From Eledone cirrhosa (taxonomy: Eukaryota), in assembly GCA_964016885.1 (NCBI GenBank), contig OZ024740.1, positions 51,026,001 through 51,090,000 on the forward strand: a stretch of 64,000 nucleotides of DNA, given 5' to 3'. Both the position numbers and the translations under genes were made by a program. The notes beneath the pieces were generated by a model, which did not search any database, had not been told where the DNA came from, and saw only the letters and a program-made list of their open reading frames with translations. Positions within the stretch are counted from its first letter, which is position 1, and each line of letters opens with the position of its first letter. Below are positions 6,616 through 62,488 of this stretch, piece after piece.

Positions 6616-6852
6616 TAAACAAGTAAGACTATTATTCAGCAGAGTACTCGATACTTGGGATAGTAGAGTAACTAAATATTAAAGAGAGTCAGAGCCTGAC
6701 GGCTGAGCTCTTGCCATTTCGAAAGCAATTTGCTGGAATTTGCTGTTGAAACAGCAAGAGCTCAGCCGTCAGGCTCTGACTCTCTTTAATATTTAGTCAC
6801 TCTACTATCCCAAGTATCGAGTACTCTGCTGAATAATAGTCTTACTTGTTTA
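6616..6852. repeat. Long palindrome of a PLE family-A terminus
   Basis: Arms of ~98 bp with one mismatch seen; imperfect pairing continues toward the centre at ~6733. Confidence 0.9.
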
Positions 6853-7718: not shown

Positions 7719-8885
7719 CTAGCTGGCCCGTCTGGCTGGCGCCCGGCTAGGTATACCGGCATTTTATCTTTTCAGGAATTCCCCCTCCACTCCAGTGCAA
7801 AGATACTGCACGCCCTCTCAAGTCAGCAAGGGGGGAGGAGGCGTTAACATGCTCTGATGTTGGGTTTGAATAGTTTTTAGGATTCCCCAGTTCAGCAGCC
7901 AGTACGTTAAAGAAAATTGATAGTTACAACAATAAAGGCTGAACAGAGAACACATTTTTTACATTTTGTACAACCATAATGGAAATTCCAAGTAACAGAA
8001 AATACATAAATTACATTGTTAGAGCCTCAGAGTATACAATATTTTTTGTTCGGCCCTTGGGAGCAAAGATGAAGAGATTGTTTGGCGAGCTCACCCTAGA
8101 GCATCCTACATACAATTGACCATGGGATAAGCATGGTTTTCCCAGATGAAGGCCAGCCACTTTTAGGGTTTGACCCTGAGCTTTGTTGATGGTAATCGCG
8201 AAGCTTAGTCTCTCTGTTGCTCTAGTAACATTTTTTCTTCTGGAAAATCTGATATTGCGGCCAGGCTGGGACTATTTGGGTGGCATATCGGCAGTAACAA
8301 TGGCGATAAGCCGTCTGTGCTTTCGTGAAATAAATACGTTTGTTTATATTTTGTTTTTGTGTATGCAAAAATATCTATACATGAATATATAATTATATAT
8401 ATTAAAATAACAGATTAAAGTTTAAGCAAAGAATCGCTGCTTTCACCCTTGACGGGATCTTCTGAAACGGAAAAAATCCATCTGTGAACGCAGAAGTAAA
8501 TATTTCGAAAAACGTTACACACTATATATATATATATATACACACACACACAGATAGTGTCATAATGTCGTAATGCAGACAGCCAGACATACAGACAGAT
8601 ATTATAAGGGCGCGATGTTATAGCTATGTATCTATCTAAAAAGACAGACTAAGAAAGATAGAGGAATGTTGTATAATCGGAAGTGTTGACATTTTAAAAT
8701 TTTTAAAGAAGTGAATATTTAAATAAACGATAAAATATCTTTAATCTTTTAACTAAATTTAGTAGACAAACATACCCTCACTTTCTTGGAAAAAGTTACA
8801 TCTATGGTGAAAATTTGGTGGTTTGGTCCAGTCATTTGGCGAAAAGTTTGTTACATACATACGGCCATCAGCTTTATAATATAGA
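7719..8885 (-). mobile_element. Non-autonomous Helitron with helicase remnant
   Basis: Starts 5' TC, ends CTAG 3', inserted between A and T; GC-rich subterminal stem-like sequence; Pif1-like C-terminus inside. Confidence 0.88.
8020..8215 (-). pseudogene. Helitron RepHel Pif1-like helicase C-terminal fragment (not in the ORF track)
   Basis: Manual translation: RLSFAITINKAQGQTLKVAGLHLGKPCLSHGQLYVGCSRVSSPNNLFIFAPKGRTKNIVYSEAL. Confidence 0.9.
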
Positions 8886-15486: not shown

Positions 15487-15524
<38 letters not shown>

Positions 15525-15592
15525 CATGGAAAAACAAACATAAAAACGATATGATATATATATGGAAGCATGGAAAAACAGACATAAAAACG

Positions 15593-15643
<51 letters not shown>

Positions 15644-19490: not shown

Positions 19491-19761
19491 GTATGTGTAT
19501 ATTTATTTATTCAGTTGGAATGCAGAATGGCTGTTCATTAAATCTTAGTTCCTTAAGAACAAATATTCCAACTAAATGTATGTACATGTGTATACACACC
19601 CACACACACACACATATATATATATGCATATATATGTATATATGTATCATCATCAGCATTTAACGTCCATTTTCCACGCTAGCATGGGGTATATATATAT
19701 ATATATGTATGGATATATGCTTATATATATATATATGCATATATATATAATATATATATGC

Positions 19762-19842: not shown

Positions 19843-21460
19843 ATCATCGTTTAATGTCTATCTTCCATATCTTCCACGCTAGCATGGGTTAGACGGAAGT
19901 TCTCCCACTTGAGGCAAGATTGGTCGGGTGACCGTGTCTTACTCGTATAGGACTGTCTGGCAGATTTCTACGGCTGGATGGCCTTCCTAACACCAACCAT
20001 ATTTACAGTGTGGACTGGGAACTTTTTACCATGTTACCTACACGGCCACATTACAGCGTGGACTGTGTGTTTTTTTTTTTTGTCGTGACACCTACACGAT
20101 CTCATTAGTTTGGACTGGATGTTGTGGTACCAACATAACTTTATAGAGAAAGGGCGGTGTTGGTGGGAGTGGGAGGATGGAGTTGGGTAGTGGGTTGGGG
20201 TATAGGTTTGGTTTGGAGGGACCTACTGACTGTAGGTTAACTTTGCACGTAAGGAAGCCAGGTCTTCTGTAATACTGCGTAGCACCAAAGATCTTGATCC
20301 AGTGACATTGTCTTAGAGAGGTGCAAGTGTGCAACATGATAAAGTCCGACCTTGCACACTTGCACCTCTCTAAGACAATGTCCCTGGATCAAGATCTTTG
20401 GTGCCACGCAGTATTACAGAAGACCCGGCTTCCCTACGTGCAAGTGTGCAAGGTCGGACTTTATCAAGTTTATCTGGGTCTACCTACTCTATAACTTCCA
20501 TCAATTTTGATCGCCCTGCACTTTTTTATACAGCTGTCGTCTTTCATGCCCATCACTTGACCATACCAACGTAATCTTCTCTTCAGTAAACAGCATCTGA
20601 TCCCTCTTATTCCTAATTTCTCACTTAGTTCATTTATGTTTTGCTGTTTGTGTATTACTATTACACATCCAACGGAGCATGCATGCTTTGTTCCTTCCAG
20701 TCTGCACAGGTCCTCTGTACACAATGCCCATGTCTTACTGCCAAGTAACATTACTGTTCGTATGCAGGCATCATACAATCTGCCTTTCATTTTTAGAGAG
20801 AAACCTCTTGTGGCCAACAGCAGTATAAGCTCTCTGAACTTTTTCCATCCCATTCTTACTCTGGCTACTGTACTTTCAGAACACCCACCACCACTGCTGA
20901 TTTTGTCACCCAGGTAACGGTAAGTGACCACTATTTCTATGGAACCATTTGGGCAATAGAAAGAGCTAGTATCTTGTGGGCACTTGCTACTTATTGCACC
21001 TGAGGATCGGCCACATATAAAATCTACGTTCTTAGATACCTTGTCTGTGATCCCACTACATCTTTTATGTACCCATCGTTTACATTTGGGACATAAAATG
21101 GAATTTCTGCCTACTCCTTTCCTACATATTAAGCATGGCCATTTCCCAGAGGGCACCTGTGCCCTATTTTCCTTTCTACATACTAGAACTTTAGTCTTAG
21201 ACAAGTTAACTTTAAGGCCTTTTGATTCTAGGCCATGCTTCCATGTTTGGAATTTCTTCTCTAGTTCAGCCATAGATTCAGCTATGAGAGTTAGATCATC
21301 TGTGTATAGAAGTTCCCATGGGCAGCCGGTCTTAAACTCTTCTGTTATAGCCTGAAGGGCAATAATAAATAGGAGGGGGCTAAGGACAGAGCGTTGATGA
21401 ACACCAACTTTTACGCTAAATTCTTCACTATATTCATTGCTAATTCTACTGATACTGACT
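19843..21460 (-). mobile_element. 5'-truncated RTE copy with internal inverted duplication
   Basis: ORF 20470-21504 (YTDD, GVHQRS, PHD); 3' UTR 19843-20240; both ends in (TA)n. Confidence 0.93.
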
Positions 21461-21470
21461 ATATATATAT

Positions 21471-21705
21471 ATAGGAAAAGTATGACTCCGGCGGCAGAGC
21501 TCAAGCCATTTCGACGGCTATTTCTGGACTAAATTAGAATTTTTAGATCAGGCTAAAAATTCTAATTTAGTCCAGAAATAGCTGTCGAAACGGCTTGAGC
21601 TCTGCCGTCGGGGTCATACTTTTTCCTATTTCCCACTCTACTACTCTAAGCATTCAGTACTCTGGTGCGTTATGGTCCATCTGGTTCCTTACCACATTTC
21701 CTTTG

Positions 21706-21708: not shown

Positions 21709-21757
<49 letters not shown>

Positions 21758-21789
21758 TCATCATCATTTTACGTCCGCTTTTCCCTGCT

Positions 21790-21834
<45 letters not shown>

Positions 21835-28164: not shown

Positions 28165-28404
28165 GTATATATATGTATAGATATATATTTACATAGGAAG
28201 AGCATCTAGCTGTAAAAATCCCAGCCAAAATATAGTTCCGTTTGAGCAAAGTACAGCACGGCCAACTGGCCAGACTTGTCTCATAATGTGGACAACCTGT
28301 CTAACCCATGCAAGCATAGAAAAATAGATGTTAAACAGTGATGATGATGTGCGTTATGGTCCACCTGGTATCTTACCACACCCTTTTTGTTATATATATA
28401 TATA

Positions 28405-28835
28405 TACACACAATAAGGATAATTGCAAAGATCCAATGTAGATGTTCAAAATTCCTTTATTTATAAAGTTGTAATACATATTTCAATGGCATTCATAGTT
28501 ATTTGATGTTTCAATCTCACAACCATTAAGGCTACATCATGAGAGAGCATCTTTTGCAATAAGGTTATATTGCCAATACATTATAAGCTATAGACAGAGG
28601 AATGAACCAGTATGATGTTTTCACTAGAGGATTGTTCCCTTGTCTTTAGCTTATATTGCATTGGCAATGTAACTTTATTGCATAAGATGCTGTCTAATGA
28701 TGTAGCCTTACTGGGTGTGAGATTGAAGCATCACATAACCATGAACAGAATTGAAATATGTATTACAGCTTTATAAATAAAGGAATTTTGAACATCTTGA
28801 ACATTTTGATCTTCACAATTATCCTTACTGTGTGT
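28405..28835. repeat. ~430-bp degenerate palindrome of a PLE-like terminus
   Basis: Arms of ~190 bp; the right arm has GCTGT CTAATGA...GAAA T ATGT ATT ACAGC followed by AATAAA. Confidence 0.8.
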
Positions 28836-29034
28836 CTAGTGATGGAAATGGGTTTTAAAAACTAGGGATATGCTAAAGTCCATGAGGCTGAGATTGTGAA
28901 GGAATGTGCGGTACACACTATAAGCTCTCCCTCCTTTCTGTAAACTGAAAGGTTGGGGAACCTTGCATATAGCTACTCATTTTCCTCACTGTATACTCAT
29001 ACACAGAACTGCAAATAAGAAATGAGTACTTTAA

Positions 29035-37345: not shown

Positions 37346-38884
37346 CAAAGGATGAACGATTGCACAAGAGATGATGAAAATTCCATTTTTCTTTAGAATC
37401 TTGCCACTGGGAAGGGGACAGGTAAAAAATAAACTCAAAATTAAGAAAAAGAGACAACACACATATATACACATACCTACATGTGTGTGTGTGTGTGTGT
37501 GTGCCTGTTTCCATGTACACCTTCATATTGACACTGTGTATGTCCTGGATATTAGCAGTTTCCTAAATGTCAGTGAAATAATATTATACTTAAAAAATAA
37601 AGTATGAACTGTCGCTGGGAAAAGTGTTTGGCCATAGAATGATACTGCTCAAAACCGTCATCCAACCCATGCTAGCATGGAAAAGCAGTCATATCAACGA
37701 TGGTATATATATACAATCATCATCATTATCATCACCATTTTACATCCATTTTTCCATGCTAGCATGGGTTAGATGAGTTGTCCTGTTGTGGGCAATGCTA
37801 GGACCATGTCTTGCTCTCAAATATATATATATATATAGTAATAATAAATACAAAGACCAAAATTCAAAGCGGGCTTGGTGTGGATTGTATTTATATATAA
37901 AACCATAGAGCAAATATTCATTATTAATACAGATTAAAGTTTAAGCAAAGAATTTCTGCTTTCACCCTATATAAGATCTTCTGAAACTGAGTTTCAGAAG
38001 TTTACTCGCCTTCAGATAATAACATGAGTCAACTGGATGAACTATAATGTTCTGTAAACATTAAATACCACAAATAGATGGGTGTATACACACACACACA
38101 CACACTGACTGAATACACATATGCTTTCTCTCAAAAGAAAACAACTTTTTGTTCCTTCCTTTACTCACTTTTATCTTTCTATTTCTCATTCTATCTTCTC
38201 ATGAAGAAGTAGTGTCCAAAACATAAAAAATATTTTCCTTCTATATCAAGCGTTAAACTAATATATTTCTTCATTGTACTGTGATGTTTGCTTTGTTATT
38301 TCTGTTTACTTTTTACACACACATGCATATATATATATATGCATAAATATATACATAGATATACATACATATATTTATATATACTGTAAAGTGGTCATGT
38401 AGGTACCACGACAAAAAGCGCCCAGTCCACACTGTAAATGTGGTTGGTGTTAAAAAGGGCATCCAGCCGTAGAAACCAAGCCAAATTCAGTTCTGTGTGA
38501 GCAAAACATGGTCATCTGACCTGGTTTGTTTCACAATGGGACAGTTCATCTAACCCATGCTGGCATGAGAAATGTATGTTAAACAATGATGATGATGATA
38601 TATACACATATACATATATAAACATAAAATTCATACACAAACAAACACATATATATACACACACAAACATATACGTATACATATATATATATAAAAATCA
38701 CTGAAACAACCTATCTCTAGCAGTCAACTGACGAGATGGGACTGTCAATATTCACCCATAATTTTTATTCATTATATATTTATAAACCCATGCTAGCGTG
38801 GAAGATAGACGTTAAACGATGTGCTTATATATATATCATCATCATCATCACCGTTTTACGTCCGTTCTTCCATGCTAGCATGGG

Positions 38885-38927
<43 letters not shown>

Positions 38928-38932
<5 letters not shown>

Positions 38933-39360
38933 TAAAATAACAGATTAAAGTTTAAGCAAAGAATCGCTGCTTTCACATGCACCACCTAAGAGAACATTAG
39001 TCTACGACCTCTTTTATACCATAAACGTGGTTCTGTCTTTGCGCGTAATTGTTTTTCACCGCTCCTATTAATGACGTATTATTCGTTTTTTCCCGTTCTT
39101 TGCCAGCGAACGTTTCCACGAACCAAAGTATCGTCTTCCTGTCTTCCTCCGGTTGCAACATTTTTTGAAATATCCAGTTCTGCGTTTACAGATTGACTTT
39201 GTTAGTTTCAGAAGATCCCATTAAGGGTGAAAGCAGCGAAGCTTTGCTTAAACTTTAATCTGTTATTTTAATAAATATTTGCTCTACGGTTCTTATATAT
39301 TTGATATATATTTTCTTTATCGAGCCCTCTTTGGATTTTAGCCTTCAATTTTATTATTAT

Positions 39361-39391: not shown

Positions 39392-39569
39392 AGTACATGT
39401 TTGTAGGTAAAATTATATTCTTTTCTTTTAAAAAGTATTTTTTGCTTGCAATGCTTACTTTTAATACACTACATAATTATACCTAAGTATAATTTGTATA
39501 AATGGAGCCCTACAAAATACAGTTATTATTTTAGTCTATACTTATATCATACACATGCATGCACACACA

Positions 39570-39670
39570 CAGGATGTCCCCCCAAAATGTATGCATACTT
39601 TGATTACCTGTGCAGGCAATATTCATTAGAATGCTGTTGAAGTGTGTATACAATTTTTGGGGACACCTTC
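39570..39670. mobile_element. Short Tc1-like MITE
   Basis: TIR-like CAGGATGTCCCCCAAAA..GTAT / ATAC..TTTTGGGGACACC. Confidence 0.6.
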
Positions 39671-42600
39671 ATATATATATAACTAAATAAATACACACAT
39701 TCAATCTTTTGCAAGCATTTCTGAAAACTGTTAATAATTTGTTTTCCTTTTAATGTAAAAATTTGTCAACTACCAACATACTTATCCTTATCAATTTTGG
39801 AGGAATATTTCTTTCTTTTTTTCCCATCCATTAAATTTAACTCATCAAAACATTTTGTAATCAATATGAATTCAAACAATAGGTTACCCAATAACCAGTA
39901 GGCTATTTATTAATCATTAGTTTCTCGTGTCTATCGCTACATTCTTTCTAAGCACAATTTGCTTGCCATCTCATATTTTTACCCTAATTTAAAAGCAACT
40001 TCTTTTCTACAGTGTTAGTTACCAGGAGAAGAGGAGAATGAAAAAAGTATATTATAATTTTCAGTTGTAGTAAATTAGTAAAAGATAAAAGAATCCAGAC
40101 AACCGTTTATCAAAGCACAACATATCTAAACAAGGCATTGGAGTTCAGTTGATGCAGAAGAGAACAATGATTAAAATAATTAAACAAGAAGCTTACTAAT
40201 AGGTTAAGAACTGCAGATGCAGAACTAGAATATGTAGGTTTGGGTGTATCGGCTTTCCCTAGTACAATTCACATTACTATCTATGTTTAGAGACCAATTC
40301 AAGCAGGCATAGAGAAATACCACATGTTACATACCAGCAGTGAACAGTGGCTTCAGTCTGTATCAGTGATCAAAATTCCATATTTTAACAACGTGAACTT
40401 CAATATAATTGCGAGGTGGCTTATCCAGTTGATGGACCACATCAAATTTTTCCAACAGCTTGTTCCATTCTGGAAATATTATTTCTAATTTTCTAAAAAA
40501 AAGTCATTCTAAACAAAAACAACTTCTTTCAAAAATGATATGGTTGGTGTATATGGATCAGGATGGATAAATGGATAGATAGGAACAATACAAGAACACT
40601 AGGGAAGTGTGAAAAGGTTAACATATAGAAAGTGAGATGAATTGAATCATGGAGGTTAATTTTAATTTTGAAGTTATAAAATAACAATTTAAAAAAAAAA
40701 AAATGAATTGGAAAAAGTTTAAAATAAAAACAATAATAATAATTGAAGAATGAAAGAAAAAATAAAGAATTGCAGAGGCAAAAGCAATTGGGTTAGTGCA
40801 GCTGGTTATAAAAGTTACCCATTTTCATTGAGTCTTGTTTCTTTTTATATTATGTTGCCATTGTAGAATATCTATGTAACTAGTCAGAAGAATTCTCAGA
40901 AACAAATCAAGTCAGGAATGGAAAACTAATGTGATACACTAGTGCAAGGTTAAGAGTAATGCATTTATTAATTTCCACAATGATAAGATTTACTAACAAT
41001 TTGATCTTAAGATATACCAGACTTTGTCAAAGAATGAATATTTGCAGAATGCAGTGTGGGTAGAAATTTAGAAAAAATTAAAATAAACTATAAACAAAAC
41101 TACAGATATGTTTTCTTAGTGGTAGTCTTAAAATATGATACTTGTATTCGTGTCTATACAGGATACAGTTATAATTAGAAACATTTTAAGATCAATTAAA
41201 TTTCAAGAATGCCTGAGTCATAAAGGAAATTCCACCAAACTGTATACTAATAAACATTGCTTTTATACCGAACTGTTTTTTTTTTCCCTTCACCTCGTTT
41301 CTGTTTCCATGATAAACTTTCTTTACACTGCCACATCTATTTTGTTTAATAGTATTTGGACTTAGGTAGGAAGGACAAATATTTGTTTTCAGTTTTTCTG
41401 TTGTTTTACTTAAGTATATTTAAGCAAAAGCTATTTACATAAAATGTCTCAGATAAGGTAACTAGCTAAATTACTAAACCAGATTGATTACATTCTGCTT
41501 AATTTCGTAATCTTTGACTCTTTGATTAGATTGCAATTGAAACTTGGTGAACTGTAAAACTCAATTATCTACACATATTCAAAGAATGGAAAAAAGAACA
41601 ATAAAACAGCTTTTTTTTTTTTTGTCCAGTGTAGAAAATAAAAAGTAGAACTGAGGAATAATAGGCATAAACAACAACTTCCTAGATATGGTACCATAAA
41701 TTAAGAAAGTTTCTTATCTTGAATTACTGTTAGTTTCTCTATTGGAACATATCAATCTAACATTATATCCAAATAAACCCAGTGTGTAACTAGAACATGT
41801 ATAAGATTCTTTTTATTAATGTGATTATTAGATAAAGTTATCAAAAAGAAATATTACAGAGAGTTGTAACTAACCAAGCTGGAAGAATATCAGGTTACTT
41901 TACTTATGCTGGTAGACACCCATCTCACCCCACCTATATATATATATATATATATATACAGCTTACTTAGGTAGGAGCACTATAACATTTAGAAGTGTTC
42001 TATCAATTGGCAGGGCTGAATTCAAATATTCTTAAATACTTAGGCTGTTTGTGTATGTGTTTGACCTCCACTGGTTCCAGTGACAAGTGTTCTAGTTGAT
42101 TTCATCAACAGAACAGCCTCCTCATGAAATCAACTTGCAAGAGACTGAACATTCCACAGACACGTGTACATTTAACATCTTTCTCAAGGAGTTCCAGCAT
42201 GACACAGTGTGTGACAAAGCTGGCTCTTTGAATTACAGGTGCAATCCACTTTGCCAGCTGAGTTGACTGAAGTAACATGAAATAAAGATGTGTGTTGGGA
42301 ATCAAACTCACAACTTTATTAAGCGACATGCCTTCATAAGTACCTGAACTATGGCAGAAATGGTCCCACTGTAGCCCTGCTTCAGTTAATTCTATAAACA
42401 CTCCACTAAAGTGGACTCGTTTTCAATGGAGGACAAAAACAGCCACCCATAAATTAAATATATATATATATATTTATATCATCCTCATCATCATCACCGT
42501 TTTACGTCCGTTCTTCCGCGCTAGCATGGGTTATATATATATATATAAACATATATATAACCCATGCAAGCGTGGAACATAGACGTTAAACGATGATGAT

Positions 42601-44009
42601 GATGATGATATATATATATATATATATATAAACACACAAAAAACTATATATATACATATATACAAATTGAGTTCCAATGAATTCGATGTTAAGAACAGAG
42701 AATTGTATACAATATAAGAAATATCATTCAGTTTTTAACTTTTTATATAATACTCTAATACTCTGTTTTTAATAAGTTCTTTAGTGTGAGCTGAGATTAC
42801 CAGATTGGAAACTAATATACACCAACTCTTCCTTATTGTGTGCTCTATATAGGCACAACCCAAAAAATTGTGTATATACATATATTATATATACACATAT
42901 ACACACACATCCCCATGCATGTGTGCACGCACACAGGTGCACACACACAGGTGCACACATGCACATACACACATTTTTATTATCATTAAAAGCTGAAGAT
43001 TCTTGAACCCTAACTTAGAGTTTCATGTTGACAATTATTTAAATGACTGAGGTAGGGAAGCAATGTGACGATATATAAGCAAAAGTATTTGCAAACATTA
43101 AAATATGGTTAATCATTGTGTTTTTGTTTGCTAAAAAAACTGTTAGAAAATGCATTACATATTCATCTATTCAATTGTTATATGCAGAGCATGTGACATA
43201 TGCATCTATTCACAAGCAAAAACACGTGATGTTTTCATATCTTCAATATTATATGTATAAAACACACAAAAGCAAGAAAAGTGGCTATTGTGAATGAAAT
43301 TTATGAAGAGAATGATTACAATTTTTTTTATAATGGGACCATCTTTCTGGATTTAGAAAATCTATTATCTGATATCTGGAAATTCCTTAATAAACAGCAA
43401 TTAAATCATCATCATCATCATTTCATTTTACGTCCACTTTTTCCCTGCTTGCAAGGGTGGGACTTCAAGAATTATTAAATTCTGATCATTTGTTCAAAAT
43501 TGCAACATGCTGTATAATAGAATGTTACATTTCTGAGACAAGGAAGAATCAAATCTACTGCAGCAATCAATGTAGGAGGATACATGTTCAATAATGGACC
43601 AATTGATTTTATAATTGTTAATATTATCATCCCATAAACTCCAGAGATATTTGAATAATGAGGTGGTGAGGTGTATTACTGAATGCCTAAATCTATAAAT
43701 AATTTAGGAGAATCTTTTCTGAAAGGGATTTTCAGTAAATCCTATATAGCTTTTTGTTTCACAAACAGGGAATATAAGTCAGAAAGAAATAGCAAATAGC
43801 AAGCAGATATTTAGGTTGATGCAATTACATTGAGGGGGAGAGATTTGTATGTTTGTATTGGAAAGTTTTTGGTGCACATATAGCTCACCTTCATGCTATT
43901 TCTGTCAAAGATCTTATAGTATATATAGCCTTTGGAGAAACACTTATAAGGTTTAGAAAGATCCTGGCAACATATGTGTTTGTGTGTGTGGATATTTGAA
44001 GATTTTCAG

Positions 44010-46240: not shown

Positions 46241-47062
46241 CCATGAAAGTGAAAACATGTAGGAAACTGTTTGGAAGCCCATTGGATGGATAGTACTTGT
46301 AATTCAAGAGCCCAGTCTTATATCACTATTATGATGAACCTCATATCTTACGGGTACACGTGTTAGTGGAATACTCTGACATTTACATGTTAATTTCATG
46401 AGTTATCTGTCCATTTGATTAAACGATTGATACACTCATTCTTAAAACTGAAGGTGGTCCATTCTTTTCTAAAACAAAAAAGGTTCTCGTCAGGTGTTGG
46501 TCAACCTGAAGTTAGATAGTATAAACTTGGCCAAGGTGCCACAGAGCATGACTATACCCAGGACAACATGATTGTGAAACTAAATTCTTACTAACATAGC
46601 AATGCATGCACACACACATATATATATACATATGCACATATATATATACATACACACACACATAATATATATCATCATCATCATCATCATCAACGTTTAA
46701 CGTCCGTGTTCCACGCTTGCATGGGTTTGGACGGGGGTAGTCCCACTTGAGGCAAGAGTGATTGTCTTGCTCGCATAGGACTGTCTGGCAGGTTTTCTAC
46801 AGTTGGATGCCCTTCCTAACACCAACCACATTTACAGTGTGGGTCTGGGAGGTTTTTACCGTGTTGCCTACACGGCCACATTACAGCGTGGACTGTGTGT
46901 TTTTTTGTCGTGACACCTACACGATCTCATTTGTTTCGGCCTCGATGGCGCGGCACCAACATAACTTTACATAGAACGGGGTGGTGTGGATCGGGTGGGG
47001 GTGGTGGGACGGGGTGTATTTGTTAGAGATGCCTACTGGCTGGAGTAGGTTTTACTATATAT

Positions 47063-50000
47063 TTAGGTAAGGCGGGTCTTCTCTGTTACTGAGTACCGCC
47101 AAAGGTCTCGGTCCAGTGACATTGTCTTGGAGAGGTGTAAGTGTGTGATGTCGGAGTTTATCAGCTCGTCCCAGGTTTTTCTAGGTCTGCCTATTCCGTG
47201 ACTACCGTCTATCTTTATTGCCCTGCACTTTGTTATACAGCTATCGACTTTCATGCGCATCACGTGTCCATACCAACGTAGCCTTCTCTCGAGTAAACAA
47301 CATCTGATCCCTCTTATCTCTAATTTATTCCTTAGTTCGTTTATGCTTTGCCGTTCACGTATATTACTGTTACACATCCAGCGGAGCATGCAAGCTTCGT
47401 TCCTCTCTAGTCTGCGTATATCCTCTGCACACAATGCCCAGGTCTCACTGCCATGCAGCATTGCTGTTCGTATGCAGGCATCGTACAACCTGCCTTTCAT
47501 TTTTAGTGAGAACCCTTTAGCAGCTAATAGTGGTATAAGCTCTCTGAACTTTTTCCAACCAGTTCTGACTCTAGCTACAGTACTTTCAGAGCACCCTCCC
47601 CCACTGCTGATTTTATCGCCCAGGTAACGGAAGCTGTCCACTATTTCTATAGAACCCTCTGCGCAATTGAAAGAGCTAGTAGTTTGTGGGCACTTGCTGC
47701 TACTTATTGCACCAGAGCACCGGCCACATGTAAAATCTATGTTCTTAGTTAGCCTACCTGTGATCCCACTACATCTTTTATGCACCCATACTTTGCATTT
47801 AGGACATAAAATGGAGTTTCTACCTACGCCTTTCCTACACACCGAGCACGACCATTTCCCAGAAGGGACCGCCGCCTTGTTTTCTTTCCTACAAACTAGT
47901 ACTTTGGTCTTAGCCAGGTTAATTTTAAGTCCTTTTGACTCTAGGCCGTGCTTCCATGTTTGGAATTTCTTCTCTAGCTCGGCCATTGATTCCGCTATGA
48001 GTGTCAGGTCGTCTGCGTATAGGAGTTCCCATGGGCAGCCTGTCTTGAACTCCTCTGTTATGGCCTGAAGGGCAATAATAAATAGTAGTGGACTGAGAAC
48101 AGAGCCCTGATGGACGCCGACTTTTACGCTAAACTCTTCACTATATTCGTTGTTAATTCTAACCTTGCTGACTGTTTCTTTATACATGGCTTGTATAGCC
48201 CTCACAAGCCATTCGTCAACGCCTAGTTTTCTAAGAGCCCACCAGATAATGGAGCGGGGGACTCTGTCGAAGGCTTTCTCCAAGTCGACAAAAGCTAAGT
48301 AGAGGGGTTTACCTTTAGCTAGGTACTTCTCTTGTAGTTGTCGTACTATGAAAAGAGCGTCTGTGGTACTTTTGCCTGACACAAACCCGAACTGCATTTC
48401 ATCTAGGTCAATTCTCTCTCTGATTAGTTGCGCTATTACTCTTTCCGTGACCTTCATGACCTGGTCGATTAATTTAATGCCTCTATAGTTACTCCTATCT
48501 AGGGCGTCTCCTTTACCCTTATAACAGTTAACGATGATGCTGCTATGCCAGTCCTTCGGAACAACCCCGTTTTGTACGACTTGGTTAACTATGCGGGTGA
48601 CCATGGTGTGTCCCACCGTGCCAGATGCCTTCAGCATCTCAGCAACTATTTCCGAAGGCCCAGCCGCCTTACCAGTCTTCATATCCTTGATTGCCTTACT
48701 TATTATACTCCCCTCGACTAACACTGCTGGTCCCTCTATTGGGTCGATATGGGGGAGACTGCCTTTCTCCCAATTATTCTCCTCATTTAGAAGCCTTTCA
48801 TAGTGACACTTCCAAGCTACCTTCTTATCAGCGTCGGTGATGGCAAGTGTGCCATCGTCGTTTAGTACACACTTCTCCCCGACAATATCACGGTTTTCCT
48901 TGACGCATTGCCTAGCAATCCTGAACACCTCACGTTTTTGGTCATCGCGTTGTAGAACATGCTTGAACTTTCTTTCCTCAGCTTCCCTTCTTGCTAAGTA
49001 CACTTGTCTCCTAGCTTCCCTCCTGGCCACTTGATAGTCCTCTCTACTTCCCCCATCCCGCCATACTTTCCAAGCCTGCTTTTTGGCCTTAATTGACCCC
49101 TCCACCTTACTGTTCCACCACCATGTTACTCTCCTCCTGCCTACAGGCCTGCTCCAGCCACAGACCTCGTCTGTCGCCAACAGCAGGTTTGCTTTCAGAA
49201 ATTCCCACTCTCCCTCTATATTGTCCGACTCTAAATGTTCTTCCTTACTGTCGAAAGCATCAAGTAATATGCTTTGAAATTTATTCCTGGCTGTGGGGTC
49301 CTTTAGCTTCCATATTTTCCTCCTGAGGATAGTCCTCTTCTGTTGTCGAGTACGTCTCGTCCTGACTATGAGGTCGCTAATTATCAGTCTATGTTGGGAG
49401 GTGCATTCTTCATGGGGGAGGGATTTAGTGTTAACAACAGACACTCTGTCACGTCTTCTGGTAAGGATATAATCTACCTGGCTTGTGTGTTCCCCGGATC
49501 TATAGGTGATCAGGTGATTGTCACGTTTTTTGAAGTTAGTGTTACAGATAGTTAGGTTATTTGCATCACAGAATTCCAGGATTCTGGAGCCTTCCTCATT
49601 TCTAGTACCAAACCCATAGCCTCCATGGATTTCGTCGTAGCCGTCACAATGTTGTCCAACGTGACCATTTAGGTCGCCTGCGATAATTATATAGTCACTG
49701 TCGGATATTTGGGAGGTAGTTAGCATCAGTGTCTCATAGAATCTGTCTTTTATAGTGCCGGGCAGTCCGGATTGGGGTGCGTACGCAGATATTACTGTCA
49801 CCGTAGTTCTATTGAGGACAAGTCGTATTTTAATTATTCTGTCGTTCACTCTATTTACGTCTATTATCTTATCTGCCCACTTTTCTGCTACCATGATTCC
49901 TACTCCACCCAGCCCATCGTCGTTTCCCACCCAGAAAAGCTTATAACAACGTTTTTTACCCTCAATGAACCTAGCAGACCCACCCCTCCACCTGGTCTCT

Positions 50001-50503
50001 TGAATACAACAAACATCGACCTCCTTACGTTCAAGCATTTCTACAACCTCGTTAGTGCGACCCTTTAGGGTGCCTACATTTATGGTACCAACTCTGAAGT
50101 TTTGGATTGCGTTTGGGGGTTGGGGGCGGTGAGGGGCGGGGGGCGATGGGGTTATGTTAGCCGTCCGCGGTCGAAACAATGAGGAGTGCTCGCATTCTCG
50201 TCCAAGGGGTGAATTTGTCTTTATCTTTGGCATTGTCGCTGAGCGTCCAGATTTTTCTCTCTCACCTCCACTCTCCAGGATTCCGCAGTCCATCCATCCA
50301 TCATATATCGTATATCGAAAGGCAACCAGGCAAGCGATAGTATAGGTCTCTGGTTTCTGATTGGTCCGCGTAATAATACTGGTGATACGTGGGGGCTCTG
50401 TTTTATGATTGGTCCACGTAATAGCAATGGTGGTGTGTGGGGGTGGGAGGGAGGGGTGTTGGGTAGCTAGCAAGAAGGTAATGATTGAGATGGGTCTATG
50501 CAT
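47063..50503 (-). CDS. RTE ORF: APE endonuclease + reverse transcriptase with internal PHD-type zinc finger (true start may be a downstream Met)
   Basis: APE motifs GTINVGTL, IQETRW, SAYAPQ, GDLNGHVG, QVDYIL, SQHRL. RT motifs YRGIKLI, QFGF, FVDLEKAFDRVP, GVHQGSVLSPLLF, YADD (48008-48019), FRYLG. RTE C-terminus RRLRWYGHVMR, GRPRKTW. Confidence 0.96.
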   Translation of the reverse strand: MHRPISIITFLLATQHPSLPPPHTTIAITWTNHKTEPPRITSIITRTNQKPETYTIACLVAFRYTIYDGWMDCGILESGGEREKSGRSATMPKIKTNSPLGRECEHSSLFRPRTANITPSPPAPHRPQPPNAIQNFRVGTINVGTLKGRTNEVVEMLERKEVDVCCIQETRWRGGSARFIEGKKRCYKLFWVGNDDGLGGVGIMVAEKWADKIIDVNRVNDRIIKIRLVLNRTTVTVISAYAPQSGLPGTIKDRFYETLMLTTSQISDSDYIIIAGDLNGHVGQHCDGYDEIHGGYGFGTRNEEGSRILEFCDANNLTICNTNFKKRDNHLITYRSGEHTSQVDYILTRRRDRVSVVNTKSLPHEECTSQHRLIISDLIVRTRRTRQQKRTILRRKIWKLKDPTARNKFQSILLDAFDSKEEHLESDNIEGEWEFLKANLLLATDEVCGWSRPVGRRRVTWWWNSKVEGSIKAKKQAWKVWRDGGSREDYQVARREARRQVYLARREAEERKFKHVLQRDDQKREVFRIARQCVKENRDIVGEKCVLNDDGTLAITDADKKVAWKCHYERLLNEENNWEKGSLPHIDPIEGPAVLVEGSIISKAIKDMKTGKAAGPSEIVAEMLKASGTVGHTMVTRIVNQVVQNGVVPKDWHSSIIVNCYKGKGDALDRSNYRGIKLIDQVMKVTERVIAQLIRERIDLDEMQFGFVSGKSTTDALFIVRQLQEKYLAKGKPLYLAFVDLEKAFDRVPRSIIWWALRKLGVDEWLVRAIQAMYKETVSKVRINNEYSEEFSVKVGVHQGSVLSPLLFIIALQAITEEFKTGCPWELLYADDLTLIAESMAELEKKFQTWKHGLESKGLKINLAKTKVLVCRKENKAAVPSGKWSCSVCRKGVGRNSILCPKCKVWVHKRCSGITGRLTKNIDFTCGRCSGAISSSKCPQTTSSFNCAEGSIEIVDSFRYLGDKISSGGGCSESTVARVRTGWKKFRELIPLLAAKGFSLKMKGRLYDACIRTAMLHGSETWALCAEDIRRLERNEACMLRWMCNSNIRERQSINELRNKLEIRGIRCCLLERRLRWYGHVMRMKVDSCITKCRAIKIDGSHGIGRPRKTWDELINSDITHLHLSKTMSLDRDLWRYSVTEKTRLT
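47717..47848 (-). other. PHD-type (C4HC3) zinc finger coding segment inside RT
   Basis: CSVC-x10-CPKC-x2-WVHKRC-x13-CGRC lies between GLKINLAKTK and FRYLG; the same segment is present in all five long copies. Confidence 0.85.
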
Positions 50504-50776
50504 TTAACAAGCTATTAACAAAAATACAAAATTTGTTCAGTTAAATACGTCCAAAAACCTAAACGTATTTAGCACTTAATAGAAACAGAAAATGTAGTTT
50601 GTTTTAGCGATAGAATGGCTATTTGGACTTGAAATACGAAATGTGGATTGTTTTGAGAATACGCTAGGAGAGAGAGAGAGAGAGATGAAGTCTGTACATT
50701 ACGTTTACATGATTTTCGTTTGGACAGCAGGCAAAGAAATGAAATTTGGCGAAGTGAATTCCTATCGTATATTTAT

Positions 50777-50810
<34 letters not shown>

Positions 50811-50880
50811 CGAGGGTAGGGGGCCACATATATATATATATATATATATATATAGATATATATATATATATATATATATA

Positions 50881-51950: not shown

Positions 51951-52194
51951 TCTTATACATATATATAAAGATAAATATATACATATATACATATATATTT
52001 ATTAAAATAACAGATTAAAGTTTAAGCAAAGAATCGCTGCTTTCACCCTTAACAGGATCTTCTGAAACTAACAAAGTCAATCTGTAAACACAGAAGTGGA
52101 TATTTCAAAAAACGTTGCAACCGGAGGAAGACAGGAAGACGATACTTTGGTTCGTGGAAACGTTCCCTGGCAAAGAACGGGAAAAAACGAATAG

Positions 52195-56730: not shown

Positions 56731-57094
56731 ATGACAGCATTTATGTTTGTGTAACAATGCCTATATGCTATGCAGCAGAACTTAACGTGAGTATTAGTAA
56801 GAATATTTAACTAAATCCTAGCCAGAAATTTGTTTCTTGAAATTAGGCAGTTCTGCTGCAAGCAGAAGAATTTGAGTGGGAGATGAATGGTTATGGCTTG
56901 CTAGCTAAAATACCAGTGTCATAGATATGATAGATACACCTTTACAGGTAACCCCTGTAAAAGTGTATTCAAGTTACCTGTGGATCTTTCTTTTGAAACT
57001 TCACTTACTTCTTCATATTATATATCATCATCATCGTTTAACGTCCATCTTCCATGCTAGCATGGGTATATATATATATATATATATATATATA

Positions 57095-61575: not shown

Positions 61576-62488
61576 ATGCTTCATGAAATCAAAGTTAATG
61601 ATGATGAGATTAATGTATATAAGAATACATTTTTTAAAAAGCAAGGAAGCAAGTGCTTCAAATTGATATATAAGAGAATCGGTAGATAAGGGATAGTTTC
61701 AAATCAATATATAGAAGTTCAACAGATTTAAAAAGAAAATGCTAATGTTTGACATTATTATGTACAGGAATTAAGGAGGGGATTGATAGGAATTTAGAAC
61801 ATAGTTATCAAGGGAAGTATTGTATTTTCAAAGTAAAGTATGGCTGTCAGAATAAATGTAATAGTTTGGAACTGATGTGAAAACAAATCTAAGGTTTCAA
61901 ATTGCTGTGGAAAAGAATTATGGAAACATGAATAATGATACAAAGTTAGAATGTAGGTGTTGGAGTTAGAGTAATTTTTTCATATTAGAGCATGGATGTC
62001 AGATCAATAGTAATAGTTTGAAACTGGAGTGAAAATAAAAGGTATGATTTGAAATTACAGTGTAAGGAATATATAATATGACAATGTTGATAACAGATAG
62101 CAATAAAAAAAACAATTAGAGTAGACTTTGTTTTAAAAGAAACTTTTTAAAAAACTGTAATGGTTTCCTTCATCAGAGAAATTGTCTGCCACAATACTGG
62201 CAAAGTTCTCTGCTTGCTCTAGTTACAATCAAATGAACATTTGTGCAGTAGCATTTTCTTGTATAATCATATATTTATTTATGTAGTTACTTTCAGTAAG
62301 CATTTGAAACACACACACACTTATTTACATATAGTCACATGCACACATCATCACTATCATTGTTTAACATCTATCTTCCACGCTAGCATGGGTTAGACAG
62401 GCACAATAATATATATCCCTAACCAATGCATATGCACACAACATACACACACATGCACATGTACCCACACAGACACACACAGACACAG

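Follow-up and report, generated by a model that had tools for sequence, protein, structure and literature searches.

Truncations of an RTE-like LINE and its partner families pile up on the 5' strands of their shared 3' stem-loop

In this study, we show that the 5' truncations of a LINE and of the families that share its 3' end pile up on the 5' strands of a 3' stem-loop; in other respects they are LINE truncation of the known kind. The window, by which we mean the whole 64-kb stretch of DNA analysed here, is 35% GC, rich in (TA)n and part of a genome of 3.0 Gb, and it holds the parent LINE together with a set of very short 3' pieces, called stubs below. Our main reading, to which we give a probability of roughly 0.55, is that the stubs derive by 5' truncation from an RTE-like LINE and from partner families with a common 3' stem-loop, and that the reverse transcriptase would leave them behind on releasing the RNA as it crosses the 5' strands of that structure. 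Release of the enzyme at the stem-loop is ranked as the likeliest cause, ahead of trimming of the RNA before it is copied, which we consider clearly less probable. A sharp peak tied to a 33-nt RNA structure, and common to a LINE and its SINE, bears directly on why and at which step LINE copies lose their 5' part.

Results

The parent LINE and the families that share its 3' end

The parent element and its parts lie on the reverse strand of the window:

46670-50828 (-), near full-length parent LINE of family A, whose 5' end has (TA)n and whose tail is (GAT)n
47063-50503 (-), its single intact ORF of 1146 aa, with an APE endonuclease, a reverse transcriptase and a PHD finger
46701-46733 (-), its two-part 3' stem-loop, with outer stem CGUCC/GGACG and inner hairpin CCAUG/CGUGG

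The element is a non-LTR retrotransposon of the APE-type LINE class, since the endonuclease and the reverse transcriptase are encoded in one ORF (Pfam PF03372, PF14529 and PF00078) and the 3' end carries a simple-repeat tail. The ORF starts about 325 nt from the element's 5' end, with no separate ORF1, the PHD finger is located after the reverse transcriptase, and the 3' UTR is about 380 nt long. Its best relatives of solved structure are L1 ORF2p and R2, and a search at E<=1e-50 brought up 593 relatives; the top 120 of these are 44-54% identical and in many cases have the same domain set. The features of RTE elements that are present are the single ORF and a 3' end in short tandem repeats, which are (GAT)n in every family. 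The label RTE-like given to the parent is a putative one that combines this architecture with C-terminal ORF motifs which we take to be of RTE type; no RTE-named reference was among the 120 listed homologs, the 120 cluster members, or the atlas or PDB matches.

In a survey of 139 unselected 10-kb stretches, 6% of whose bases lie in (TA)5 or longer runs, at least four families (the LINE, a tRNA-headed SINE and two more) share their last ~45 nt and the (GAT)n tail. Family B, about 325 nt long with a tRNA-like head and a 3' end in common with the LINE, is a tRNA-derived SINE; the heads of two copies in L016 score 30.5 bits (gathering 29) and 28.1 bits against RF00005.

The stem-loop is 33 nt long and its 5' strands are the truncation zone. 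Parent 3' ends have predicted folds of -11 to -14 kcal/mol and stubs fold at about -6 kcal/mol or have no hairpin; taken singly, no fold differs significantly from shuffled sequence (z -0.1 to -1.9). The inner stem is paired in 95% of the alignment and one of its pairs covaries (A-U in 58 copies, U-G in 37). The outer stem is 55% paired in a gapped alignment, and its closing pair has no clear two-sided covariation (C-G 61, T-G 27, C-A 5, T-A 3). Conservation of the stem-loop and covariation in the inner stem are the only features of stringent LINEs seen here, and binding of the ORF protein to the structure, as in those elements, is putative. Partial loss of the inner hairpin by a short internal deletion is seen in otherwise normal copies (G000:C1:135882, C1:2053178, L122, L205 and L206).

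Truncations peak on the 5' half of the stem-loop

Break positions were counted upstream of the GGACG arm. The genome holds 42,523 exact anchors (21,261 and 21,262 by strand), and 124 exact-anchor copies, 103 of them in the initial 5 Mb of contig 1 and 21 in unselected stretches, were read by script. None of them breaks at 0-10 nt, 14 break at 11-30 nt and 2 at 31-60 nt; the bins of 61-90, 91-120, 121-150 and 151-180 nt hold 4, 4, 6 and 6, and the remaining 88 extend beyond 180 nt. The truncation peak anticipated in the initial annotation is thus present, it is genome-wide, and it takes in about one copy in nine (14/124), which extrapolated to all 42,523 anchors gives some 4,800 stubs. A looser profile scan, which retained 114 young copies of 184, overlaps the exact-anchor set and used less clean parents, gave 14 breaks at 10-30 nt and then 4 and 6 in the next 30-nt bins; one of these 14, L104, probably represents a long copy of greater age, and the window stub at 19646 was classed as long. 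These histograms cover the families with the 3' stem-loop, and the counts were confined to young or exact-anchor copies because BLAST alone inflates the peak, older families sharing only the 3' end.

Genome-wide searches for TA-flanked breaks, with one match counted per locus, gave the same picture. The pattern (TA)5-N{0,30}-GGACGTWAAAYGATGATGAT had 1462 matches on the reverse strand vs 0 for its backwards control. On that strand 109 breaks fall at 0-10 nt and 1462 at 0-30 nt, and the number lying further upstream than the outer stem is 257. Corrected for motif retention (33/51), the densities are about 10, 68 and 5-7 per nt; by hand count, 20 of the 39 loci listed from the 257 break at -29 to -32 and 19 further upstream. 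The lower edge of the peak is not a detection limit, because shorter stubs, though rare, can be detected. A tally by hand of 48 TA-flanked loci, two of them from the window itself, placed 19 breaks at -24 to -29, 10 at -21 to -23, 1 at -19, 12 at -16/-17, 4 at -12 to -14 and 1 at -2, with 1 unclear. The commonest break, at ATGC, is located inside the hairpin, and the peak, with the loop (-12) at one edge and the outer stem's foot (-30) at the other, occupies the 5' half of the structure. It is seen in several families, whether TA-flanked or not. The initial annotation had placed the breaks right after the reverse transcriptase passes the hairpin; this is not supported, as 18 of the 48 tallied stubs lack part of the inner hairpin and most are without the outer stem.

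A template trimmed by a nuclease before copying would give a similar peak. The ORF protein would shield the 3' stem-loop from 5'-to-3' decay of the RNA, and the remaining piece of 45-60 nt would be copied fully. The largest group of tallied breaks (19/48, -24 to -29) does lie at the 5' edge of the structure, and stringent LINE proteins are reported, in the accessible part of the source, to bind their 3' stem-loop (PMC4176376). However, 16 of the 48 breaks, at -12 to -17, lie deep within the part that is supposed to be protected, and the common fold point of three mirror insertions described below fits a cDNA end at the loop. In a final step the cDNA would be cut back to the nearest microhomology, which agrees with the finding that joint positions track microhomology. 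We regard this series of steps as a whole as unlikely, although no other alternative comes as close to release of the enzyme.

Stub loci in the window

The stubs of the window and the tracts that adjoin them are as follows:

15522-15596 (+), two degenerate tandem stubs with a 44-bp period, starting at the loop
19646-19688 (-), stub with TA-rich sequence on both flanks
21754-21794 (-), stub of the SINE/family-C type, broken at -17 within the 5' arm of the hairpin
38784-38821 (+), stub of a LINE subfamily (AGACG type), with the inner hairpin kept and the outer-stem 5' arm missing
38826-38835, (TA)5 spacer that separates two tail-to-tail stubs of different families
38835-38887 (-), family-D stub, broken 24 nt upstream of GGACG at TAACCC
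38886-38927, (TA)21 tract where the stub 38835-38887 (family D) has its 5' joint
42478-42533 (-), family-D stub, head-to-head with the stub at 42558-42609
42558-42609 (+), family-A stub, broken at -22
43405-43463 (-), stub without a TA tract on either side, broken at -28, absent from the initial annotation
57024-57067 (-), stub with (TA)14 at its 5' joint
62346-62401 (-), stub without a TA tract at the joint, broken at -29, absent from the initial annotation

A piece of the 3'-end repeat is present at all nine positions first cited (15532 to 57025). These pieces had been described as made up of the terminal hairpin, spacer and (GAT)n, which fails at 21754, where the break lies inside the hairpin and no hairpin remains (-2.8 kcal/mol). 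They had also been placed in TA tracts; the window contains in addition two stubs, at 43405-43463 and 62346-62401, that have no TA tract at the 5' joint. A break at (T)AACCC is found in four of the nine pieces, but the proposal that the TA of the element itself merges there with the tract breaks down at 42558, where the parent sequence is CCAAACCC, the overlap is one A only and the element has no TA of its own.

The stub at 38784-38821 has a tail of one unit, GATG only, a predicted fold of -6.1 kcal/mol and a short, broken TA run upstream, and its neighbour at 38835-38887 is 100% identical to a long parent copy across the aligned part; the two are likely to be successive insertions. The tandem units at 15532 and 15567 are without the hairpin 5' arm, were missed by the profile scan and are probably one event followed by local duplication. 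When contigs of four public runs were compared with 39400-42900, the repeat stretch with the head-to-head stub pair (42478-42533 and 42558-42609) was skipped and no contig spanned it. A contig of run X1, from a second organism, matches the unique part at 39400-41900 with ~93% identity, and given better assemblies an orthologous comparison may be possible.

Other repeats were also seen in the window. A MITE-like element at 38925-39278, with 52-nt terminal inverted repeats (96%), adjoins the (TA)21 tract of the family-D stub at 38835-38887, and related pieces lie at 51956-52193, 37821-37988 and 8371-8519. A fold-back at 20243-20470, inside a LINE copy, with 92-nt arms (96%) and a 33-nt inverted repeat, yields a short inverted segment. 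Near-perfect palindromes are found at 6616-6852 (arms of 116 nt), 21476-21623 (71 nt) and 28403-28838 (163+34 nt), the second of which meets a LINE copy's 5' end at a run of TA.

TA tracts set the landing site and the exact joint

The preference for TA sites noted from the window is family-wide. A (TA)5 run lies within 30 nt downstream of 8669 of 21,261 anchors (41%) vs 9.4% of random positions, and this is a preference, not a specificity, for in microsatellite-targeting LINEs nearly all copies lie in the target repeat. It is also correct that the (TA)n is target rather than tail, because 19 of 24 full-length SINE copies are preceded by (TA)4 upstream of their 5' end. Overlap of TA or AT at the joint is also borne out: of 269 ATGC joints 100 were listed, and 86 of these are seamless (p=2e-7 vs the at most 2:1 expected without overlap), the others, by hand count, being 8 of the form T/TGC, 2 A/ATGC and 4 other. 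Later slippage could be an added source of seamless joints. No target-site duplication of at least 6 nt was found in 48 copies with readable flanks (shuffled 4%), the 27 of 75 copies with TA on both sides having been set aside as unreadable; a duplication starting at a TA step, the Tn-TA signature, was likewise seen in 0/48.

Tail-to-tail pairs number 70 genome-wide vs ~6 expected. In the 15 of 70 pairs examined the partners are mostly of different family or subfamily, which fits later insertion at the junction of tail and AT, as at 38784/38835. For the same reason an origin in which both ends of a TA break act as primers at once was rejected for these pairs.

The initial annotation went further and made TA microhomology the cause of the stubs: the upstream TA end would invade the cDNA at a TA or AT of the element past the hairpin, and joining would be premature. 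The seamless ATGC joints agree with this, as does the excess of 5' (TA)4 in the profile scan, in 9/14 stubs vs 10/38 longer truncated copies (p=0.02), although several of the 38 are internal deletions and not true ends. However, stubs do not appear to be more frequent at TA sites. The 3' flank has (TA)4 in 5/14 stubs vs 61/110 long copies of the exact-anchor set (p=0.25) and in 6/14 vs 50/100 of the overlapping profile-scan set, all of them small samples. Moreover, full-length SINEs are equally TA-flanked on their 5' side (19/24 vs 9/14 stubs, p=0.45), a TA tract is missing from the joint in half of the stubs ((TA)4 in 7/14 exact-anchor stubs), and no comparable peak occurs at AT/TA steps further upstream. 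We therefore hold invasion by the TA end to be improbable as the cause of premature joining; TA sets the landing site and the exact joint, and the stem-loop marks the position of the break.

Mirror insertions and a possible failure in first-strand synthesis

The two sides of the stem-loop are not lost equally. Loss at the stem-loop has removed the 3' end from 1 of ~68 upstream-anchored copies vs the 5' part from 14/114 (p=0.01). Head-to-head searches returned 10 + 12 loci, and when two loci repeating one satellite, two pairs spaced by TA and a fusion of two families had been set aside, 17 independent same-family mirrors that bear a tail and fold at the loop or the outer stem were left. Several of them also mirror 28-119 nt of unique downstream flank (119, 89, 80 and ~30 nt), as would be expected if cDNA attached to the target folds back and is extended, and three independent ones (L225, L229 and L231) have one common fold point at the loop. 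Mirrors of opposite polarity at the same hairpin are about as common (14 loci, 13 independent); 3 of the 13 are fusions of two elements, 8 come back to their own tail and 2 have no tail. The hairpin thus also triggers template switching, whether on the sense strand or in DNA, and because of these 14 loci the tail-bearing mirrors are retained as supporting evidence for cDNA snap-back and not as proof of it. The polarities differ in what is regained: the 5' part in 1 of 17 tail-bearing mirrors vs the tail in 8 of 10 of opposite polarity (p=1.7e-4), in searches that require different mirror lengths. Fold-back is thus provoked by the hairpin on either strand; what is specific to the cDNA side is that the 5' part is lost. 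Failure during first-strand synthesis is supported by these data, not proven.

It might be argued that the stubs result from later deletion, in which long copies, once inserted, would lose their 5' part when the DNA broke or replication slipped between a TA tract and the hairpin, which as DNA is nearly palindromic. Rearrangements centred on the hairpin do occur in both polarities, including the three fusions of two different elements, short internal hairpin deletions exist, and the window contains TA-centred and other fold-back duplications. On the other hand, losing the 40-nt 3' side should be easier than shedding hundreds of upstream nucleotides, yet it is the rarer loss (1/~68 vs 14/114), many stubs are identical to young parents, and 16 of 17 tail-bearing mirrors are without any 5' part. 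We rate later deletion, like invasion by the TA end, as a poor account of the peak.

Some further rearrangements of the 3' end deserve description. L246, L247 (G000:C20, ~9.97 Mb) and L248 are zigzag arrays in which the 3' end alternates between strands with a ~152-bp period and turns at the hairpin and at an upstream site, with up to ~7 cycles in L246; they look like repeated template switching. In L238, L244 and L249 the 3' arm and spacer are replaced by a perfect complement of the 5' arm, that is, a short fold-back with return to the tail. At L222-L224 (G000:C1535) a hairpin-centred mirror stub has been amplified within an AT-rich tandem unit of ~1.4 kb.

Stubs are probably dead ends

The stubs had also been put forward as a minimal mobile unit. 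They have no promoter and no head, their 5' ends are ragged, spreading from -12 to -30, and 38 of them represent 26 different 3' types that match several parent families. Matches in the 5' flanks of the same 38 were found only between neighbouring stubs and in one unrelated repeat. Mobility is unlikely, given that they lack a promoter and that most of the outer stem is gone, and we consider them probable dead ends. For these reasons a self-propagating micro-SINE is largely refuted and very improbable, despite the high extrapolated number of stubs and the retention of the inner hairpin in 30 of the 48 tallied.

The suggestion that stubs may account for some (CAT)n-(TA)n compound microsatellites is not supported. 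Of 22 (GAT)4+ arrays that abut (TA)4, 18 are element tails; copies of all lengths explain them, however, because only one array is a stub with TA on both sides. In the survey sample 71 of 95 (GAT)4+ arrays are tails of these families, an origin that is relevant to the design of microsatellite markers. Stubs of 35-60 bp are likely to be missed by repeat annotation.

Discussion

It seems that the sequence features described above can be accommodated in a single series of events, with release of the reverse transcriptase as its centre. The endonuclease would nick the target at a TA step, with priming by the target's AT against the AU of the GAU tail. The enzyme would then unwind the 3' arms of the stem-loop. 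Once it is past the loop, the new cDNA end would be complementary to cDNA already made, the RNA could refold (predicted at -11 to -14 kcal/mol for RNA and -4 to -6 for cDNA), and the anchor of the protein on the RNA would have been melted. About 1 in 9 reactions would abort at this point. The short free cDNA end would join the upstream DNA through the nearest match of 1-2 nt, which in a TA site would be AT, A or T; on rare occasions it would instead fold back and copy itself. The products would be dead ends.

We tentatively propose, with less confidence than for release itself, that the RNA structure used for recognition of the tail doubles as a barrier at which initiation can abort, so that around a tenth of insertions fail and leave thousands of stubs of 35-60 bp and rare palindromes. 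If this is true, the passage from initiation into elongation has left a genomic footprint, namely the stubs and the hairpin-centred palindromes. A like footprint would be expected in other LINE/SINE pairs with a stem-loop, and recognition structures could be mapped from sequence alone.

Among the papers accessible to our search, no bounded truncation peak at a LINE 3' stem-loop was found. In Lepidoptera, 5'-truncated RTE copies seed microsatellite families (Tay et al. 2010, PMC2887409). According to the accessible part of that paper, the lepidopteran RTE resembles the element described here in being a single-ORF APE and reverse transcriptase element with a short-repeat tail, including (TGA)n, in having many short 3' pieces, and in the sharing of flanks among microsatellite loci, and no bounded truncation peak is reported there. 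In contrast to the 0/48 found here, the lepidopteran copies carry target-site duplications; a long 3' UTR and a PHD finger after the reverse transcriptase set the present element apart (PMC2887409). LINEs and SINEs of the RTE clade are described as having a Tn-TA insertion signature, with a TA dinucleotide at the site (PMC13295347, PMC6007223). They are similar in that LINE and SINE have a common 3' end and a microsatellite-like tail; the signature is read from target-site duplications, which are undetectable here, and the accessible text of these two papers does not address the position of truncation.

The stringent LINEs ZfL2-1, ZfL2-2 and UnaL2, whose ORF2 binds the 3' stem-loop, also have a conserved 3' stem-loop and a short-repeat tail common to LINE and SINE (PMC4176376, as far as its text is accessible). 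They belong to the L2 clade and their binding was shown experimentally, whereas the binding suggested here is drawn from conservation and covariation. With regard to the joints, microhomology-mediated (annealing) 5' joining of truncated LINEs (PMC4245944; PMC2912911), cDNA snap-back junctions in insertions made by R2 protein (PMC11371274) and fold-back junctions of L1 (PMC11702581) have been described, and the accessible part of PMC2912911 describes no truncation peak. The overlaps of 1-2 nt at truncated 5' joints and the priming of a cDNA 3' end on its own cDNA are shared with what is seen here (PMC4245944, PMC11371274, PMC11702581). As far as the accessible parts of these three papers go, those events are scattered over the template or come after full-length synthesis, whereas the events described in this study are found in germ-line copies and centre on one structured zone of 20 nt.
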